DNA of 38,979 nucleotides from Escherichia phage LM33_P1. Position 1 is the first letter of the stretch. Every line of letters starts with the position of its first letter. The position numbers and the translations under genes were made by a program. Shown in pieces: positions 2,828-38,499 of this stretch. The notes under the pieces were generated by a model that was not told where the DNA came from, made no database searches, and was given only the letters and a program-made list of their open reading frames with translations. The stretch lies in the sequence record NC_031937.1; one strand, written 5' to 3'.

Positions 2828-2832
2828 TTCTG

Positions 2833-2855
2833 ACTTAACTATCACTATAGGACTC
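2833..2855 (+). promoter_or_regulatory. Phage RNAP promoter variant (TTAACTATCACTATAGGAC) directly upstream of gene 1
   Basis: Matches the 11-member promoter family in this genome. Confidence 0.6.
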
Positions 2856-2924
2856 AAGGTCTAAGACTCCAAGTGAAAGACCAAAGAGACTTTAAGTGAA
2901 AGACTAATAACAAGGACTTTAAGT

Positions 2925-4892
2925 ATGAGCGTCATCTCTATTGACAAGCACGACTTCTCTGATGTGTCGAACGCCATTGAGCCGTTTAACCTACTGGCTG
3001 ACCACTACGGGCAAGACATTGCAGTCAAACAGCTTCAGCTTGAGCACGAGGCATACACTGAAGGCGAGCGACGTTTCATCAAGAACCTTGAGAGACAGAC
3101 TGAGCGAGGGGAACTGGCAGACAATCAGGTCGCCAAGCCTTTGATGCAGACTCTGGTCCCTAAGATTGCGCAAGCCGTCAAGGAGTGGCATGAAGGTCCA
3201 GACGGGAAGCTGTCAACCTCTCGTCCGAGCGTAGCGTTCACCATGTTGAGCACTGAAGAGAAGGCCGTAAAGGTCCGCTCTTTGCGCATCTCCTGCGAGT
3301 CTGCTGCGGTTATCATATTGAAGGTCATACTCTCCAAGCTGGTCAAGCCTGAAGGGATACCGATTACACCGATGGCCTCAGCGATAGGTCGCACACTTGA
3401 GGACGAAATCCGCTTCGGTCGCATCCGTGACAAGGAGAAAGAGCACTTCAAGAAGGCGATAGCTGATAACCTGAATAAGCGGGCCGGGGCGTCCTACAAG
3501 AAAGCCTACATGCAAGCGGTCGAGGCATCCATGCTGGAGCAAGGCCAACTGGAAGATGCGTGGGGGACTTGGAGTCCGACCGAGGCTGTCCACGTTGGAA
3601 TCAAGATGCTGGAGATTGTCATCCAGTCCACACAACTGGTCGAGCTTAAGCGTTACGGTGCTGGCAATGCAGCGGCTGACGTTGAGATGGTCCACCTGTC
3701 AGACTTCTGGGTCAAGAAGATGGCACAACGAGGATTCAGCCTTGCGGGTATAGCTCCAGTCTACCAGCCTTGCGTCGTTCCACCTAAGCCGTGGACTGGT
3801 GTCGTAGGCGGTGGGTACTGGGCCAAAGGACGCAGACCATTACCACTGATTCGCTTAGGGTCTAAGTCTGCGGTAGCACGCTACGAAGACGTGTATATGC
3901 CTGAAGTCTATGACGCTGTGAACATCATTCAGAATACACCTTGGAAAGTGAACAAGAAGGTTCTGGAAGTGGTGAACATGGTCGAGAAGCTGAACAACAC
4001 GCCTATTGATGACATCCCTCAGATGGAACCGCTGAAGCCTGAGGACTATGCGGGTGAGACTGAAGAAGAACTCAAGGCATGGAAGAAGGCTGCTGCTGGT
4101 ATCTATCGCCGCGAGAAGGCCAGACAGTCACGAAGATTGTCACTGAGCTTTATCGTCAACCAAGCGAACAAGTTCTCTCAGTTCAAGGCCATCTGGTTCC
4201 CGTATAACATGGACTGGCGCGGTCGCGTCTACGCTGTGCCGATGTTCAACCCTCAGGGTAACGACATGCAAAAGGGTCTTCTGACTCTGGCAGTCGGTAA
4301 GCCTATTGGTGCTGATGGTTTCAAATGGCTGAAGGTCCACGGTGCAAACTGCGCGGGTGTCGATAAAGTCACCTTCGAGGAGCGTATCAAGTGGGTGGAA
4401 GATAACCACGACAACATCATGGCTGCTGCCAAGGCACCGATGGATAGCATTGAGTGGTGGGGCAAGTTAGACTCTCCGTTCTGCTTCCTAGCGTTCTGCT
4501 TCGAGTATGCTGGCGTAATGCACCACGGCTTGTCTTACTCCTGCTCGCTGCCGATAGCGTTCGATGGGTCCTGCTCTGGGATTCAGCACTTCAGCGCTAT
4601 GCTTCGCGACCACATCGGTGGACATGCAGTAAACCTGACGCCATCCGGTAAGGTCCAAGACATCTACCGCATCGTGTCTGACCGCATTGAGGAGGAGCTT
4701 AAAGTCCTACTGGTTAACGGTACGGACAACGAGATGGTAACTCACGAGGACAAGAAAACTGGTGAGATTACCGAGCGTCTCAAGCTGGGGACACGAGAGC
4801 TTGCCCGTCAGTGGCTGACCTACGGTATGTCACGAAAGGTCACTAAGCGTTCGGTCATGACTCTGGCCTACGGGTCGAAAGAGTACGGCTGA
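2925..4892 (+). CDS. 1: T7-like single-subunit DNA-directed RNA polymerase, N-terminal 655 codons, ends at in-frame TGA
   Basis: Collinear similarity to T7 RNAP; ORF terminates ...MTLAYGSKEYG* where T7 continues ...GSKEFGFRQQ. Confidence 0.9.
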   Translation: MSVISIDKHDFSDVSNAIEPFNLLADHYGQDIAVKQLQLEHEAYTEGERRFIKNLERQTERGELADNQVAKPLMQTLVPKIAQAVKEWHEGPDGKLSTSRPSVAFTMLSTEEKAVKVRSLRISCESAAVIILKVILSKLVKPEGIPITPMASAIGRTLEDEIRFGRIRDKEKEHFKKAIADNLNKRAGASYKKAYMQAVEASMLEQGQLEDAWGTWSPTEAVHVGIKMLEIVIQSTQLVELKRYGAGNAAADVEMVHLSDFWVKKMAQRGFSLAGIAPVYQPCVVPPKPWTGVVGGGYWAKGRRPLPLIRLGSKSAVARYEDVYMPEVYDAVNIIQNTPWKVNKKVLEVVNMVEKLNNTPIDDIPQMEPLKPEDYAGETEEELKAWKKAAAGIYRREKARQSRRLSLSFIVNQANKFSQFKAIWFPYNMDWRGRVYAVPMFNPQGNDMQKGLLTLAVGKPIGADGFKWLKVHGANCAGVDKVTFEERIKWVEDNHDNIMAAAKAPMDSIEWWGKLDSPFCFLAFCFEYAGVMHHGLSYSCSLPIAFDGSCSGIQHFSAMLRDHIGGHAVNLTPSGKVQDIYRIVSDRIEEELKVLLVNGTDNEMVTHEDKKTGEITERLKLGTRELARQWLTYGMSRKVTKRSVMTLAYGSKEYG

Positions 4893-4926
4893 GGACATCG
4901 TGATGCCAGGGACATCGTGATGCCAG
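4893..4926 (+). repeat. Perfect 17-nt tandem direct repeat (GGACATCGTGATGCCAG x2) inside the RNAP gene
   Basis: Read directly; lies immediately 3' of the in-frame TGA (4890-4892). Confidence 0.9.
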
Positions 4927-5606
4927 CGATTGACTCAGGGTCTGGCGCTATGTTCACTGAACCAAGCCAAGCATCTCGCTTCATGGCTAAGATGATTTGG
5001 GAAGCTGTGAGTGTGACCGTAGTTGCTGCGGTTGACGCGATGAAATGGCTTCAGGGTGCTGCCAAGCTGCTTGCTGCTGAAGTGAAGGACAAGAAGACTG
5101 GAGAAATCCTGAAGCCTTGTCTTCCGGTACACTGGGTCACACCTGATGGTTTCCCTGTCTGGCAGGAATACCGCAAGAAGGACACCACTCGTCTGAACCT
5201 GATGTTCTTAGGGTCATTCAACCTTCAGCCTACCGTCAACAAAGGCACGAAGAAAGAGCTGGACAAGCACAAGCAGGAGTCAGGCATTAGCCCGAACTTC
5301 GTCCACTCACAAGATGGTAGCCACCTCCGCAAGACTGTAGTCCACACGCACCGCAAATATGGCGTGATGTCATTCGCAGTGATTCACGATAGCTTCGGGA
5401 CCATCCCGGCTGACGCTGAGTATCTGTTCCGTGGAGTCCGTGAGACGATGGTCGAGACCTACCGCGACAACGATGTGCTGCTTGACTTCTACGAGCAGTT
5501 TGAATACCAGCTTCACGAGAGCCAGAGAGACAAGTTGCCTGAGCTTCCGAAGAAAGGTAAACTGAATATCGAAGACATCTTGTCTTCAGACTTTGCATTC
5601 GCTTAA
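4917..5606 (+). CDS. 1: T7-like RNA polymerase, C-terminal 229 codons (same frame as N-terminal part)
   Basis: Similarity to T7 RNAP C-terminus through ...HDSFGTIPADA... to terminal FAFA; same frame as 2925..4892, separated by TGA plus 8 codons. Confidence 0.88.
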   Translation: MMPAIDSGSGAMFTEPSQASRFMAKMIWEAVSVTVVAAVDAMKWLQGAAKLLAAEVKDKKTGEILKPCLPVHWVTPDGFPVWQEYRKKDTTRLNLMFLGSFNLQPTVNKGTKKELDKHKQESGISPNFVHSQDGSHLRKTVVHTHRKYGVMSFAVIHDSFGTIPADAEYLFRGVRETMVETYRDNDVLLDFYEQFEYQLHESQRDKLPELPKKGKLNIEDILSSDFAFA

Positions 5607-6153: not shown

Positions 6154-6176
6154 CCTAAACTATCACTATAGGATTA
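6154..6176 (+). promoter_or_regulatory. Phage RNAP promoter (CTAAACTATCACTATAGGATT)
   Basis: Consensus match; position equivalent to T7 phi1.1. Confidence 0.7.
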
Positions 6177-6215
6177 GACTCAAGGTCATGACTCAAAGTC
6201 GTGGCCTTCATGATT
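6177..6215 (+). promoter_or_regulatory. RNase III-type processing hairpin (AAGGTCA/TGGCCTT, G-U containing)
   Basis: Conserved box AGACTCAAGGTCAT...GTGGCCTTCATGATTA, also at 13110 and 35902. Confidence 0.5.
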
Positions 6216-6249
6216 AACCCTAAATAAACACTACTGGAGATTTAACCGT

Positions 6250-6697: not shown

Positions 6698-7785
6698 TGA
6701 CAACTATCAAAACTAACCCTCACCGCGCTGTAGATTACTCTGAGTCTGGAATTAAGAAGGCACTGGAAGCAGCCGGGTCTCTGGAAGCTGAAGTGAAGTA
6801 CGATGGTGTGCGCCTGAACCTCCTGGTCCTGCGTGAAGGTGAGACCTACTGGCTTAGCCGCGAGTCGAAACCTCTACCAGCCTTGGAGTGGATGAACTCT
6901 GAGTTAGGTAATGCGTGGACCCAAGCTGACTGGCGATGGTTCCTGCGTCAATCCGGCTACGAAGGTGTGGGCATGATGATTGATGGCGAGGTCATGGTCA
7001 AAGGTGTAGACTTCAACACCTCCTCAGGTCTCATCCGAACGAAGTGGCTCAAGCCTAACAACGAGGAGTTCGCTGAATACTATTCGCCGGCGACTGGTGG
7101 AAAGAAGCTCCCGTTCTGGGGATCCCGGTCACGACTTCAGGTTGTGGTCTACGGTGTCATCGACATGACAACCATTGCTGACCCGAAAGCCGAAGGTCCT
7201 ATCCATAGCGTCACACGCCTGAAGGCCGAAGCTATCGTCCCTCTCCTCCAGAAATACTTCCCGGAAATCGACTGGGTTCTGTCTGAGTCACACACGGTCT
7301 ATGACCTTGAGTCTCTCAACTCCCTGTACGAAGAGAAGCGTCTGGAAGGACACGAGGGTCTGGTAGTCAAGGACCCACTTGGTAAATACAAGCGCGGCAA
7401 GAAGTCAGGCATGTGGAAAATGAAGCCGGAGGACACCATTGATGGGACCGTGTGTGGACTCGTGTGGGGGACTCCTGGTAAGGCTAACGAAGGTAAGATC
7501 ATCGGCTTTGAGGTTCTACTGGAGGATGGCATGGTGGTCAACGCCTGCGGTCTGTCTGAAGAACAGAAGGACGGGTTTACGGCTAAGGTCAAGGAGGACA
7601 CGCTTGCTGCGGTTGGCATCTTTGCGCCGTACGGCATTGGTGGTAACGAACCTTGCTTCGATAACCCATACGAAGGCTGGCAGTGTGAAGTCCTCTTCAT
7701 GGAGAGGTTCCCTGATGGCTCCCTTCGTCACCCCAGCTTCAAGTGCTGGCGTGGAACCGAAGACAACCCAACGGTGAAGTCATGA
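6697..7785 (+). CDS. 1.3: ATP-dependent DNA ligase
   Basis: Similarity to T7 ligase including KYDGVR adenylation motif and C-terminal SLRHPSF..RGTEDNP; start taken at ATG overlapping the 1.2 stop (track ORF begins 6682). Confidence 0.9.
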   Translation: MTTIKTNPHRAVDYSESGIKKALEAAGSLEAEVKYDGVRLNLLVLREGETYWLSRESKPLPALEWMNSELGNAWTQADWRWFLRQSGYEGVGMMIDGEVMVKGVDFNTSSGLIRTKWLKPNNEEFAEYYSPATGGKKLPFWGSRSRLQVVVYGVIDMTTIADPKAEGPIHSVTRLKAEAIVPLLQKYFPEIDWVLSESHTVYDLESLNSLYEEKRLEGHEGLVVKDPLGKYKRGKKSGMWKMKPEDTIDGTVCGLVWGTPGKANEGKIIGFEVLLEDGMVVNACGLSEEQKDGFTAKVKEDTLAAVGIFAPYGIGGNEPCFDNPYEGWQCEVLFMERFPDGSLRHPSFKCWRGTEDNPTVKS

Positions 7786-7961
7786 GTACACAACTTTATA
7801 TCAACATAGCAAGTAGTCAACTCTACGCTGTGGTAAATGGCGAGCTGTGGTATCGTAAACTCAAGAAGTGGGCCAAGTCCTCCTACGATGAAGAGACAAT
7901 ATCAACCATGAGTCATCGCTACCGTAAGGCTGCTAAGGTGAACAACTTTAAGATGCGTTAA
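7782..7961 (+). CDS. Hypothetical small basic protein (59 aa)
   Basis: ATG overlapping ligase stop (ATGA); track ORF 7743..7961. Confidence 0.45.
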   Translation: MSTQLYINIASSQLYAVVNGELWYRKLKKWAKSSYDEETISTMSHRYRKAAKVNNFKMR

Positions 7962-7965
7962 CGTC

Positions 7966-7999
7966 AACCCAGTGGTCTTATGACTGCTGGGTTTCTTTG
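7966..7999 (+). terminator. Rho-independent terminator-like hairpin (AACCCAG/CTGGGTT) with U-tract; candidate early terminator TE
   Basis: 7-bp stem followed by TTTCTTTG, just upstream of a phage promoter. Confidence 0.5.
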
Positions 8000-8020
8000 C
8001 GTACGGGCCACCAGCTAGAC

Positions 8021-8043
8021 CCTAAGCTATCACTATAGGACAA
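8021..8043 (+). promoter_or_regulatory. Phage RNAP promoter (CCTAAGCTATCACTATAGGACAA)
   Basis: Consensus match. Confidence 0.7.
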
Positions 8044-8069
8044 CCCTAACCGACCAAAGGAGAAACCTT

Positions 8070-8324
8070 ATGTCTAAAAACTTAATGTTCAACCGATTTA
8101 CTCGAAGCTTCCACCTGTCGCATAGCCCATTCAGCTTCCATAAATCTAATCAACCATTACCCCGCTTTGGTAAGACAGTGGCTCTGTCTCCCACAGTTCA
8201 TGCGCTAGTCACCCGCAAGTCTATGCTGAAGGCTATGGATAAAGAACAAGTCGATGTACCTGTGGTCGTTACAAAATGGCCTCGCATTAAGCTGGCCCTT
8301 CTGGTAATTAAGGAAGTGTTTTGA
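8070..8324 (+). CDS. Gene 1.6-like protein
   Basis: C-terminal similarity to T7 gp1.6 (..RIKEVF) as recalled; RBS AAAGGAGAAA. Confidence 0.55.
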   Translation: MSKNLMFNRFTRSFHLSHSPFSFHKSNQPLPRFGKTVALSPTVHALVTRKSMLKAMDKEQVDVPVVVTKWPRIKLALLVIKEVF

Positions 8325-8662
8325 TGGCATATTGTGATAGCACCACATACTGTGAAGCATGTAATGGTGATGACCGCTTCCCACACGTTGGTAAACTTGT
8401 AGGTAACAAGCTGCAAGAAATTGATGGTGTACGCAAGCCATCCCACTATCAGGTCTTTGATGGCGTGGAATCCATTGAGATTATCGCACGGTCAATGACT
8501 GTGAGTGAGTTCCGTGGGTTCTGCATGGGTAACGTCCTGAAGTATCGACTCCGGGCTGGTAAGAAGTCAGAGCTGGCAACTATGGAGAAGGACCTGAACA
8601 AAGCAGCCTTCTATCAGGAGCTGTTCGACCTGCATAAAGGTAAGTGCTATGCTTCCGAGTGA
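8324..8662 (+). CDS. Gene 1.7-like protein (nucleotide kinase family, short form)
   Basis: C-terminal similarity to T7 gp1.7 (KPSHY..F...E.IE.IARSMTV..F.G.C.GN.LKYRLRAGKKSEL) as recalled; 113 aa versus about 196 in T7. Confidence 0.6.
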   Translation: MAYCDSTTYCEACNGDDRFPHVGKLVGNKLQEIDGVRKPSHYQVFDGVESIEIIARSMTVSEFRGFCMGNVLKYRLRAGKKSELATMEKDLNKAAFYQELFDLHKGKCYASE

Positions 8663-8672
8663 GTGGTGTGAA

Positions 8673-8744
8673 ATGATGTTCGAGAAGACAGGTAACACTG
8701 ACTACCTTGAATTGTATAACCAGTGGAAGGAGCGCGGTTTATGA
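8673..8744 (+). CDS. Possible mini-ORF (23 aa) at the gene 1.8 position
   Basis: ATG-initiated ORF overlapping the gp2 start; no strong RBS. Confidence 0.2.
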
Positions 8745-8899
8745 CTGAGGTTGAGAAGAAATACATCGTGGAGCTTGAGGGTCGCGTTCAGTCCTTCGAG
8801 GTTCCGTTGTACGCAAAGTCTCTTGAAGAGGCTACCCTGAAGTCCCAAGAGTATGAGGACGCTGGGTTTGTGGTCGGACGGATTCGCCCTGAGACCTAA
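8741..8899 (+). CDS. 2: Gp2-like inhibitor of host RNA polymerase (52 aa)
   Basis: Similarity to T7 Gp2 (..SFEVP.YA..L.EA......Y...GF.V.R.RP); below the ORF-track cutoff. Confidence 0.7.
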
Positions 8900-8917
8900 A
8901 CTATCACTGTAGGACAG
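8895..8917 (+). promoter_or_regulatory. Phage RNAP promoter variant (CTAAACTATCACTGTAGGACAG)
   Basis: Consensus match with TG at -3/-2. Confidence 0.6.
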
Positions 8918-8956
8918 ACGTCCAGTTAGTAACTTTAAATTAGGAGATTTACACCA

Positions 8957-9649
8957 ATGGCTAAAGAGCAACTGAAGACTTTCACCACTCCGGTAGCTGG
9001 TATCGTTGAGCCTTACGCATGGCTGAACAAAGCAGACACCAAGTTTAATGAACGTGGTGAGCATAAGGTTAACCTGACGTTCGACCTGAGCGACCCGAAG
9101 GTCCGTAAGATGATTGATGTCTTACAGAAGATTCACGACGATGCGTATGCGAAAGCACTCGCAGACCACGAGAAGAACCCACCTCAGGTTCAGCGTGGCA
9201 AGAAGCCTATTGAACCACGTGAAGGCGACATGCCGTGGATTGAGAATGGTGACGGTACTGTTACCCTTAAGTTTAAATGCTTTGCGTCTTACCTGAAAGA
9301 CGGCAAGTCCGAGCCTATCTTATTACGGTTCTACGACACCGATGCTAAACTCATCCGTGACGTCCCGAATATTAGCGCTGGCTCCAAACTGAAGGTCAAG
9401 TTTAAAGTCCTGCCGTTCAAGTGGAACGCTGCGACCGGTGCAAGCGTTAAGCTCCAGCTTGAGTCCTGCCTTCTTGTAGAACTGAAGGAGTGGAAAGGTG
9501 CTGGTGGTGATGGTGGCTGGGGTGATGATGAAGACCTTGGTACTGGCTACAAAGCGCCAACCGATGGTGACTTCGGGTCTGATGCCTTCGGTGACGATGG
9601 TTCCGAAGGTGGTGACGACTCCAGCTCTGGTGGCGATTACGACTTCTAA
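8957..9649 (+). CDS. 2.5: Single-stranded DNA-binding protein with acidic C-terminal tail ending in F
   Basis: Similarity to T7 gp2.5 (MAK.....EPYA., GDMP...NGDGT..FKFKC.AS, SKLKVK....P.KWN.A.GASVKLQLES..LVEL); D/E/G-rich tail ...GGDYDF. Confidence 0.9.
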   Translation: MAKEQLKTFTTPVAGIVEPYAWLNKADTKFNERGEHKVNLTFDLSDPKVRKMIDVLQKIHDDAYAKALADHEKNPPQVQRGKKPIEPREGDMPWIENGDGTVTLKFKCFASYLKDGKSEPILLRFYDTDAKLIRDVPNISAGSKLKVKFKVLPFKWNAATGASVKLQLESCLLVELKEWKGAGGDGGWGDDEDLGTGYKAPTDGDFGSDAFGDDGSEGGDDSSSGGDYDF

Positions 9650-11040: not shown

Positions 11041-11058
11041 ACTATCACCGTAGGGATG
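11036..11058 (+). promoter_or_regulatory. Phage RNAP promoter variant (CTAAACTATCACCGTAGGGATG), followed by 5' stem-loop 11053-11077
   Basis: Consensus match except CG at -4/-3; transcript would start with 10-bp hairpin GGGATGAGAC/GTCTTGTCCC. Confidence 0.55.
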
Positions 11059-11103: not shown

Positions 11104-11182
11104 GTCTCCATAGCTCAAACGGTAGAGCGGCGGGTCGTGATGGCCTATTGCGATTAGGGTTCGAATCCCCGTGGAGACGCCA
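11104..11182 (+). tRNA. tRNA-like element (7-bp acceptor stem, canonical D-arm, T-loop GGTTCGAATCC, encoded CCA; anticodon arm non-canonical)
   Basis: GTCTCCA...TGGAGAC acceptor pairing, D-arm GCTC-AAACGGTA-GAGC, T-arm TAGGG-TTCGAAT-CCCCG, 3' GCCA; 76 nt plus CCA; no well-paired anticodon stem found by hand (candidate loops UCGUGAU or UUGCGAU). Confidence 0.5.
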
Positions 11183-17163: not shown

Positions 17164-17186
17164 CACTAAACTATCACTATAGGGAC
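17164..17186 (+). promoter_or_regulatory. Phage RNAP promoter (CTAAACTATCACTATAGGGACT)
   Basis: Consensus match; position equivalent to T7 phi6.5. Confidence 0.75.
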
Positions 17187-17248
17187 TTTAGGACCTAAGA
17201 TATGACTATAAGATAGACTTTAGTCTTAACTTAAAGAGGAGATTCAAG

Positions 17249-20008: not shown

Positions 20009-20026
20009 ACTATCACTATAGGAACA
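20004..20026 (+). promoter_or_regulatory. Phage RNAP promoter (CTAAACTATCACTATAGGAACA)
   Basis: Consensus match; upstream of scaffold gene. Confidence 0.75.
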
Positions 20027-25771: not shown

Positions 25772-25794
25772 CCTTAACTATCACTATAGGGACT
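25772..25794 (+). promoter_or_regulatory. Phage RNAP promoter (CCTTAACTATCACTATAGGGACT)
   Basis: Consensus match; position equivalent to T7 phi13. Confidence 0.75.
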
Positions 25795-38296: not shown

Positions 38297-38319
38297 ACTT
38301 AACTATCACTATAGGGAAG
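38297..38319 (+). promoter_or_regulatory. Phage RNAP promoter (GACTTAACTATCACTATAGGGAAG), right-end promoter analogous to T7 phiOR
   Basis: Consensus match. Confidence 0.7.
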
Positions 38320-38499
38320 ACCCCCGGTTACTTATAGTATTACTATAGTGAATATACATATGCAGACTTTATGCAAGACCTTAGGAGGCAGACTCCGAGT
38401 TCTTACCTAAGGCTTGCACCGATGGAAGGAGGGTGATATTAATCATAATCCCTCCAATACAGATAGTCACCGACCATAGATACAGGAGGTATGTAGCAT

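Follow-up and report, generated by a model that had tools for sequence, protein, structure and literature searches.

Does the RNA polymerase (RNAP) of a K1F-like phage transcribe its own gene? The question is raised by the short region directly upstream of gene 1 in Escherichia phage LM33_P1 (genus Kayfunavirus, K1F-like, Studiervirinae), whose window, the whole stretch of DNA analysed here, spans 38,979 bp. An initial annotation placed in this region a promoter variant from which the phage RNAP could transcribe gene 1, followed by repeated leader motifs, and all of its coordinates (promoter, both repeat pairs and gene 1 start) proved exact on recheck. We propose that a genuine phage-RNAP promoter at 2833–2855, starting transcription at G2850, would self-amplify gene 1 expression and, with its leader, is the counterpart of an origin-type module, a reading to which we assign a probability of about three in four. 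The argument turns on three elements.

2833–2855, plus strand: phage-RNAP promoter, 23 bp (−17 to +6), called from consensus match, weight matrix, conservation, co-variation and outside annotation
2850–2924, plus strand: predicted 5′ leader of gene 1 mRNA made by the phage RNAP, 75 nt (32/75 A, 65% A+T)
2925–5606, plus strand: gene 1, T7-type single-subunit RNAP, 893 amino acids (aa) in intact relatives, with a TGA at 4890–4892

The phage promoter upstream of gene 1

The core promoter string TTAACTATCACTATAGGAC occupies 2835–2853 on the plus strand and places +1 at G2850, 75 nt from the gene 1 ATG at 2925. With up to three mismatches allowed, the promoter pattern occurs at 10 sites in the genome, every one on the plus strand, whereas 0.01 would be expected. 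In a leave-one-out weight matrix the gene 1 site scores 28.7, and the remaining nine promoters range from 26.5 to 36.3. Specifically, the site meets the consensus at the specificity region (−12 to −5), the TATA element (−4 to −1) and the GG start at +1; it equals the consensus from −13 to +2, and its sole departure from the majority is a T for A at −14, which is also found in the promoters at 25789 and 38314. The site is therefore a genuine member of the promoter family, and the word “variant” in the initial annotation overstates a difference confined to −14. It is the leftmost of the ten phage promoters because no family member lies further left, and it is intergenic, starting 5 nt past the stop codon of the upstream open reading frame (ORF) at 2501–2827 in the same orientation as the genes. 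The start sequence is GGAC, with A at +3. An A at +3 is likewise present in the next three promoters (6171, 8038 and 8912) and in the GGAA promoters at 20021 and 33065, and the promoters at 17182, 21006, 25789 and 38314 start with GGG. No terminator-like site was found on the plus strand between 1 and 7000, so none separates the promoter from gene 1; a simple scan of 7000–9000 did not find the early terminator TE.

The site is also conserved. In an alignment of 27 distinct relatives, column identity is 0.958 across the promoter, against 0.81 at synonymous sites and 0.92–0.965 at codon positions 1+2 of the flanking genes; the promoter is thus conserved to the same level as codon positions 1+2. 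The leader is contained in 217 phage records, and a protein homology search with the polymerase returned matches that are all at least 99% identical, with no added diversity. In IMG/VR, the promoter lies at −75, −76 or −81 of gene 1 in 21/21 Kayfunavirus loci, and Caroctavirus CR8 also carries a promoter upstream of gene 1. A wider survey covered 80 IMG/VR loci, including 53 of T7, BA14/Berlin, T3 or K11 type with an identifiable promoter family. None of these 53 has a family promoter within 400 nt upstream of gene 1, and their nearest upstream phage promoters are terminal, phiOL/phiOR-like sites 2–3.5 kb away. In line with this distribution, the T7 and T3 records list E. coli promoter C before gene 1, to which T3 adds the RNase III site R1, and in K11 and BA14, annotated by the group that annotated EcoDS1, the first phage promoter, phi1.05, comes after gene 1. 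A promoter before gene 1 is therefore a Kayfunavirus and Caroctavirus trait within the sampled part of the subfamily.

At the left end of LM33_P1 (1–2832) there is no phage promoter before 2850. Loci of T7, BA14, T3 and K11 type (L077–L136) carry a phiOL-like phage promoter close to their left end, ahead of the early region.

Co-variation with the polymerase adds a further line of evidence. Three types were compared at the promoter core and at the specificity loop of the polymerase, including the residues at T7 positions 748/756.

K1F type (LM33_P1, IME278): promoter core ACTATCACTATAGG; loop TRLNLMFLGSFNLQPT; N/N
GW1 type (GW1, L045): promoter core ACCCTCACTATAGG; loop TRLDLMFLGTFRLQPT; T3-like D/R
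CR8 (Caroctavirus): promoter core GGTACACTATAGG; loop TRIKLMFMGVQYRPT; K/Y

Promoter bases −12 to −8 differ among the three types, and in all three the gene 1 site tracks the genome-wide consensus, changing with every other promoter of its genome.

Public records already mark the element. EcoDS1 (EU734172), which is 100% identical over window positions 2828–2924, annotates a “promoter phi” at 2244–2266 before gene 1, the same element in the same position with nothing different. CR44b (NC_023576; 1814–1836) and CR8 (NC_023548; 3356–3378) each annotate a “predicted promoter” that is an equivalent element at the equivalent position before gene 1, although CR8 belongs to another genus and has its own promoter consensus and an 87-nt leader. 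The promoter itself is therefore not new. The EcoDS1, CR44b and CR8 records carry no comment on promoter function or on the leader repeats. Taken together, four independent lines of comparison (conservation, distribution, co-variation and annotation) agree that the predicted promoter is real.

Two weaker promoter-like sites elsewhere in the genome were also seen. One, at 11053 (CTAAACTATCACCGTAGGG), has a weight-matrix score of 21.6 and precedes by ~50 nt a tRNA-like element (11104–11182), called tRNA-Thr (cgt) by ARAGORN; at the corresponding position the IME278 record has a pseudo-tRNA. The other, a degenerate site (CCTAAGATATGACTATAAGATAG, score 19.6), lies 29 nt 3′ of the 17182 promoter (17182–17233).

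Proposed self-transcription of gene 1

The claim that the phage RNAP could transcribe its own gene is supported by the family match, conservation, co-variation and outside annotation of the promoter and by the missing terminator; judged by these comparisons, self-transcription of gene 1 is well supported. In the sequence of events that we propose, host RNAP would first make gene 1 mRNA from left-end early promoters by presumed read-through into gene 1. A sigma-70-like site (TTGACA-18-TAATAT, 576–605) is a candidate for this host-driven route, and the EcoDS1 record annotates three host promoters at the left end of EcoDS1. The early phage polymerase would then also initiate at G2850, which would bring gene 1 into the phage-polymerase regulon, and gene 1 expression would become self-amplifying and able to persist past host transcription shut-off. 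By analogy with T7 class II promoters, the GGAC start may make the promoter relatively weak and easily damped. Promoter and leader together would be the Kayfunavirus/Caroctavirus counterpart of the origin-type module, phi1.1B or phi1.05, that follows gene 1 in T7, T3, BA14 and K11.

An engineered precedent is the T7 “autogene”, in which Dubendorff and Studier reportedly placed T7 gene 1 under a T7 promoter in 1991. As in LM33_P1, the polymerase gene sits under its own promoter and its expression is self-amplifying, but the autogene is synthetic, whereas the natural arrangement belongs to a lytic programme that is timed, shuts off the host and is presumably subject to lysozyme control. The term autogene is in use in PMC6395690 and PMC1500874. 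Among natural phages, the Pseudomonas phage LUZ100 has a promoter, phi1, directly upstream of its RNAP gene with an experimentally mapped start, and a positive feedback loop after initial host-driven transcription has been proposed for it (PMC10134795). Both phages have a cognate promoter right in front of their polymerase gene, and the feedback logic matches. LUZ100 is, however, a distant relative with temperate features, in which a MarR-like repressor is believed to gate the loop, and its start was mapped by experiment, whereas that of LM33_P1 is predicted. SP6 was rejected as a precedent: a single site with five mismatches, 1.3 kb upstream of the SP6 polymerase gene, is too weak.

Several points weigh against self-amplification from 2850. 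A search of literature and data found no transcript 5′-end data for K1F-like phages, so initiation at 2850 is unproven. The positive feedback is a prediction from sequence. The survey loci are not phylogenetically independent, so that counts such as 21/21 and 0/53 overstate the number of independent events. T7-type phages carry a left-end phiOL-like promoter upstream of the whole early region, and Kayfunavirus and Caroctavirus may therefore not be alone in self-transcribing gene 1. Finally, gene 1 as given in the window has a premature stop. Specifically, the window is identical to OZ035813.1 (rotated by 3,376 bases) everywhere except in a 19-nt block at 4891–4909, which reads GAGGACATCGTGATGCCAG in place of TCGCAGACCAAGTTTACGA and copies the next 18 nt. 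This block creates the in-frame TGA at 4890–4892 and splits the polymerase into ORFs of 655 and 229 aa. An intact 893-aa polymerase exists (P0001), and the split has the look of an error of assembly or editing, not of a biological feature.

The leader repeats at the level of DNA, translation and RNA

What, then, are the interleaved direct repeats that the initial annotation described between promoter and gene? Two copies of AAGTGAAAGAC lie at 2871–2881 and 2894–2904, and two of GACTTTAAGT at 2888–2897 and 2915–2924. When the 75-nt leader was shuffled 20,000 times with its dinucleotide composition kept, 0.3% of the shuffles contained an exact 11-mer direct repeat (P about 0.003); Tandem Repeats Finder reported nothing for these repeats. 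A better account of them is a set of four degenerate RGACTyyAAGK copies, and the following features are involved.

2849–2868, plus strand: first, degenerate repeat copy GGACTCAAGGTCTAAGACT, beginning at the transcription start
2864–2884 and 2887–2907, plus strand: imperfect direct repeat AGACTyyAAGTGAAAGACyAA, 21 nt, 18/21 identical, 23 nt apart
2912–2927, plus strand: gene 1 ribosome-binding site AAGGACTTTAAGTATG, composed of the Shine-Dalgarno sequence AAGGA, an 8-nt spacer (the last repeat copy) and ATG

The repeat at 2864–2907 encloses both AAGTGAAAGAC copies and the first GACTTTAAGT copy, and a further partial copy at 2913–2929 coincides with the ribosome-binding site. The degenerate copy at 2849–2868 contains ACTCAAGGTC, which recurs in the 5′ arm of the R1.1 RNase III site in both T7 and LM33_P1.

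Conservation separates the two repeat pairs. The last GACTTTAAGT copy, which is the Shine-Dalgarno-to-ATG spacer, is invariant (column identity 1.0), as is the whole ribosome-binding site (1.0; 27/27 relatives), and the first GACTTTAAGT copy reaches 0.93; the first and second AAGTGAAAGAC copies stand at 0.82 and 0.84, against 0.81 at synonymous sites. The repeated leader motifs are thus real and above chance, but conservation is confined to the GACTTTAAGT copies, the second of which is the ribosome-binding site. The AAGTGAAAGAC pair is conserved at a roughly neutral level and is rearranged in other lineages: the GW1, L024 and Eclo_IJM types have lost its first copy, and the IME278 type has a different arrangement of all the repeats. 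Such near-neutral identity and lineage-specific loss are what would be expected if the repeats, the ribosome-binding site aside, were relics without function, left in a purine-rich leader by an old duplication. We nevertheless regard this explanation as unlikely, for a reiterated GACTnnAAGT-like unit persists in every lineage despite the rearrangement, reiteration is found in CR8 and T7 too with different flanks, and the motif is tied to one promoter class across genera. The direct repeats are copies of a family-wide motif and no device special to gene 1.

Two upstream mini-ORFs within the leader, GTG 2873–2899 (MKDQRDFK*) and GTG 2896–2907 (MKD*), were rejected because they are not conserved; the GW1 type has lost the GTG of the first (2873). 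The counterpart of this GTG in the IME278 type (L049, about 2947–2997) shares the gene 1 reading frame without a stop between and would allow a 15-codon N-terminal extension of gene 1, which is not conserved. A further ACTTTAAG occurs at 7945–7960, intergenic after the ligase gene and directly followed by ATGCGTTAA.

The position of the last copy raises the possibility that the repeated ACUUUAAG acts on translation, either as an epsilon-like enhancer or ribosome standby site, or by pairing with the ribosome-binding site, in which case it would damp translation of the self-made transcript. The last copy forms the invariant spacer, an identical GGACTTTAAGTATG site serves T7 gene 1.1, and TTAACTTTAAG-type motifs precede Shine-Dalgarno sequences in the BA14 and T7 leaders. 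Additionally, RNAalifold pairs +3 to +12 with GGACUUUAAGU, and the minimum-energy fold of the transcript from +1 pairs 2889–2897 with 2916–2924. However, the RNAalifold pairs carry no covariation signal because all are invariant, and the ribosome-binding site is predicted to be equally accessible in promoter-initiated and read-through transcripts (0.41–0.62 unpaired in four lineages), with no consistent direction between the transcript types. Clusters of this motif also follow terminal promoters without any gene after them. The epsilon enhancer of the T7 gene 10 leader is a 9-nt element, UUAACUUUA, located upstream of the Shine-Dalgarno sequence. The match to it is partial: the copies GAGACUUUAAG and AGGACUUUAAG share 6–7 nt with epsilon, and the second lies downstream of the Shine-Dalgarno sequence. 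On balance, we consider a role in translation distinctly improbable. Isoform-specific translational control, in which the repeat would mask the site in the self-made transcript alone, was rejected on the similar predicted accessibility in the four lineages.

At the level of RNA structure, the transcript from +1 (2850) folds no better than shuffled sequences (z = +0.49) and the leader RNA has no match in Rfam, on which grounds a structured leader RNA from +1 was rejected. A consensus structure with covariation was likewise discarded, as RNAalifold gave only the invariant pairs of +3 to +12 with the ribosome-binding site and a covariation term of 0. A longer RNA that includes the promoter is predicted to fold as follows.

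2839–2902, plus strand: predicted irregular RNA hairpin, 19 bp in five short helices, −17.4 kcal/mol, z = −2.41

This hairpin pairs promoter bases −11 to +2 with 2890–2902 and is therefore restricted to read-through RNA made by the host polymerase, because its 5′ arm is the promoter. The repeats might thus matter as RNA, with the read-through hairpin being this group's equivalent of the R1 RNase III processing and stabilising site of T7 and T3. T3 annotates R1 at the equivalent position before gene 1, and BA14 and K11 show typical hairpins there. Beyond the folding energy in LM33_P1 itself, comparable hairpins with z values of −1.9 to −2.1 are obtained for the GW1, L024 and IME278 types; in the IME278 type, a T>A change at promoter position −2 together with two changes in the 3′ arm yields a perfect 11-bp helix, with a duplex energy of −14.4 kcal/mol compared with −7.3 kcal/mol in the window and −9.0 or −11.1 when partners are swapped. 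The likeness to R1 is therefore one of genomic position and of a hairpin predicted in early read-through RNA. The differences are that the promoter itself forms the 5′ arm and that the conserved core AAGGUCA...UGGCCUU, found in R1, R1.1 and R1.3 of T7/T3 and in the R1.1 of LM33_P1, is missing from the hairpin, where ACUCAAGGUC occurs alone with no UGGCCUU partner. Moreover, the helix is interrupted four times and is absent in CR8, RNAalifold does not recover it and finds no covariation, and the negative Rfam result counts against it as well. An R1-like function is, in our judgement, doubtful.

Related structures occur elsewhere in the genome. Directly after the post-gene-1 promoter (6171–6225) lies a strong hairpin, AAGGUCAUGACUCAAAGUCGUGGCCUU (z = −3.40), homologous to T7/T3 R1.1. 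The GW1 and CR8 types have an altered stem (GGTCGCTGACTT..AGTGGCC), a pattern suggestive of compensatory change. Past R1.1, a decayed second promoter (6236, scoring 12.9 in the weight matrix) was considered and rejected, the region varying freely among relatives. Approximately 30 nt downstream of the right-end promoter (+1 at 38314; 38314–38350) lies CTATAGTGA, an inverted copy of the promoter core TCACTATAG, which could pair with that promoter in read-through RNA and so resemble the hairpin proposed at gene 1.

Relation of the leader to the T7 origin region

Where else does such a leader occur? The leader was compared by local alignment with four T7-like loci of 16–21 kb on both strands, and one segment stands out.

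2884–2927, plus strand: segment homologous to the T7 phi1.1B–gene 1.1 leader, in the T7 primary-origin region, 36/45 columns identical

In 3/4 loci the best alignment, scoring 38–45, is to the leader between phi1.1B and gene 1.1; the runner-up reaches 29 and the background 14 ± 3. In T7 itself the alignment runs up to the ATG. Additionally, the last 14 nt of the gene 1 ribosome-binding site are those of the T7 gene 1.1 site GGACTTTAAGTATG. We interpret this relation between the two leaders as homology that goes beyond shared words.

The motif shared by the two leaders follows a particular class of promoter. The CR8 leader has four CTT(T)AAG motifs, and the leaders after T3 phi1.05, BA14 phi1.05, K11 phi1.05 and T7 phi1.1B have three or four ACTT(T/A)AAG motifs each. 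When CTT[AT]?AAG was counted in the 110 nt after every promoter, the means per leader were as follows.

Upstream of gene 1: no such promoter in other genera; 1.70 in Kayfunavirus + CR8
First promoter (group) after gene 1: 2.82 in other genera; 0.10 in Kayfunavirus + CR8
Terminal promoters: 1.71 in other genera; 0.07 in Kayfunavirus + CR8
All other promoters: 0.12 in other genera; 0.10 in Kayfunavirus + CR8
Background per 110 nt: 0.13 in other genera; 0.10 in Kayfunavirus + CR8

At four loci of other genera (L078, L086, L100 and L116), reiterated ACTTAAAG/ACTTTAAG after the terminal promoters runs into the host-promoter region. The motif is therefore not purely a ribosome-binding-site feature, because these terminal stretches lead into none.

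In T7, replication starts at the primary origins phi1.1A/phi1.1B, phiOR is among the secondary origins, and every T7 origin requires a T7 promoter (PMC8373140). The T3 record places a rep_origin directly after phi1.05, in a CTTTAAG-rich stretch. Given the motif pattern, the homology and these T7 and T3 origins, the gene 1 module looks like the origin-type counterpart, placed across gene 1. The leader shares a reiterated ACTTTAAG-type motif with T7-type origin modules, its last copy being the gene 1 ribosome-binding site.

The promoter and its A/T-rich repeat leader may serve chiefly, or additionally, as the primary origin from which K1F-like phages replicate. DNA synthesis in the leader would then be primed by transcripts from the promoter, as at T7 phi1.1A/B, and self-transcription of gene 1 would be a by-product of origin placement, an idea compatible with the self-amplification proposed above. 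The homology at 2884–2927, the promoter-dependent initiation of T7 and the T3 rep_origin beside phi1.05 all fit this idea, as do the CTT[AT]?AAG clusters, which in four other genus-level groups occur precisely after origin-type and terminal promoters and, in Kayfunavirus and CR8, after the gene 1 promoter only. The LM33_P1 promoter after gene 1 is followed by just the R1.1 hairpin and no such leader. On the other hand, the leader, at 65% A+T compared with 50% in the genome, is less A/T-rich than those of T7 (74%) and T3 (77%) and no richer than two other LM33_P1 leaders (63–67%); strict motif copies number just two in the K1F type, the IME278 and GW1 types have fewer still, and the role of the motif in origin function is putative. 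An origin at this position is a tentative proposal, less likely than not.

Compared with T7 phi1.1B and T3 phi1.05, the LM33_P1 module has a similar layout, in which a phage promoter precedes a leader that carries reiterated CTT(T)AAG and may count as A/T-rich, and with T7 it further shares direct homology over about 45 nt and an identical ribosome-binding site. It differs in that the T7 and T3 modules lie downstream of gene 1, before the small genes 1.1 and 1.05, whereas that of LM33_P1 lies before the polymerase gene, and in that its leader is less A/T-rich and its origin activity putative. To the annotation already in public records, the present analysis adds the three-way co-variation, the restriction to two genera, the demotion of the AAGTGAAAGAC pair and the homology of the leader to the T7 origin region.

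The arrangement at gene 1 is a clean natural case of a polymerase gene wired to its own promoter, and it separates the K1F-like phages from T7, T3, K11 and BA14. The wiring was probably selected, because it has been retained through at least three changes of promoter specificity. The separation from T7, T3, K11 and BA14 bears on the timing of fast lytic cycles and on the use of K1F polymerase/promoter pairs as orthogonal expression parts. It is conceivable, although we would not yet favour it, that one 92-bp element placed upstream of gene 1 serves as both primary replication origin and polymerase self-control switch; if so, the start of replication would be coupled to polymerase self-amplification in Kayfunavirus and Caroctavirus. 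The link between the leader and the T7 origin region thereby offers a concrete, testable guess at where replication may start in K1F-like therapeutic phages.

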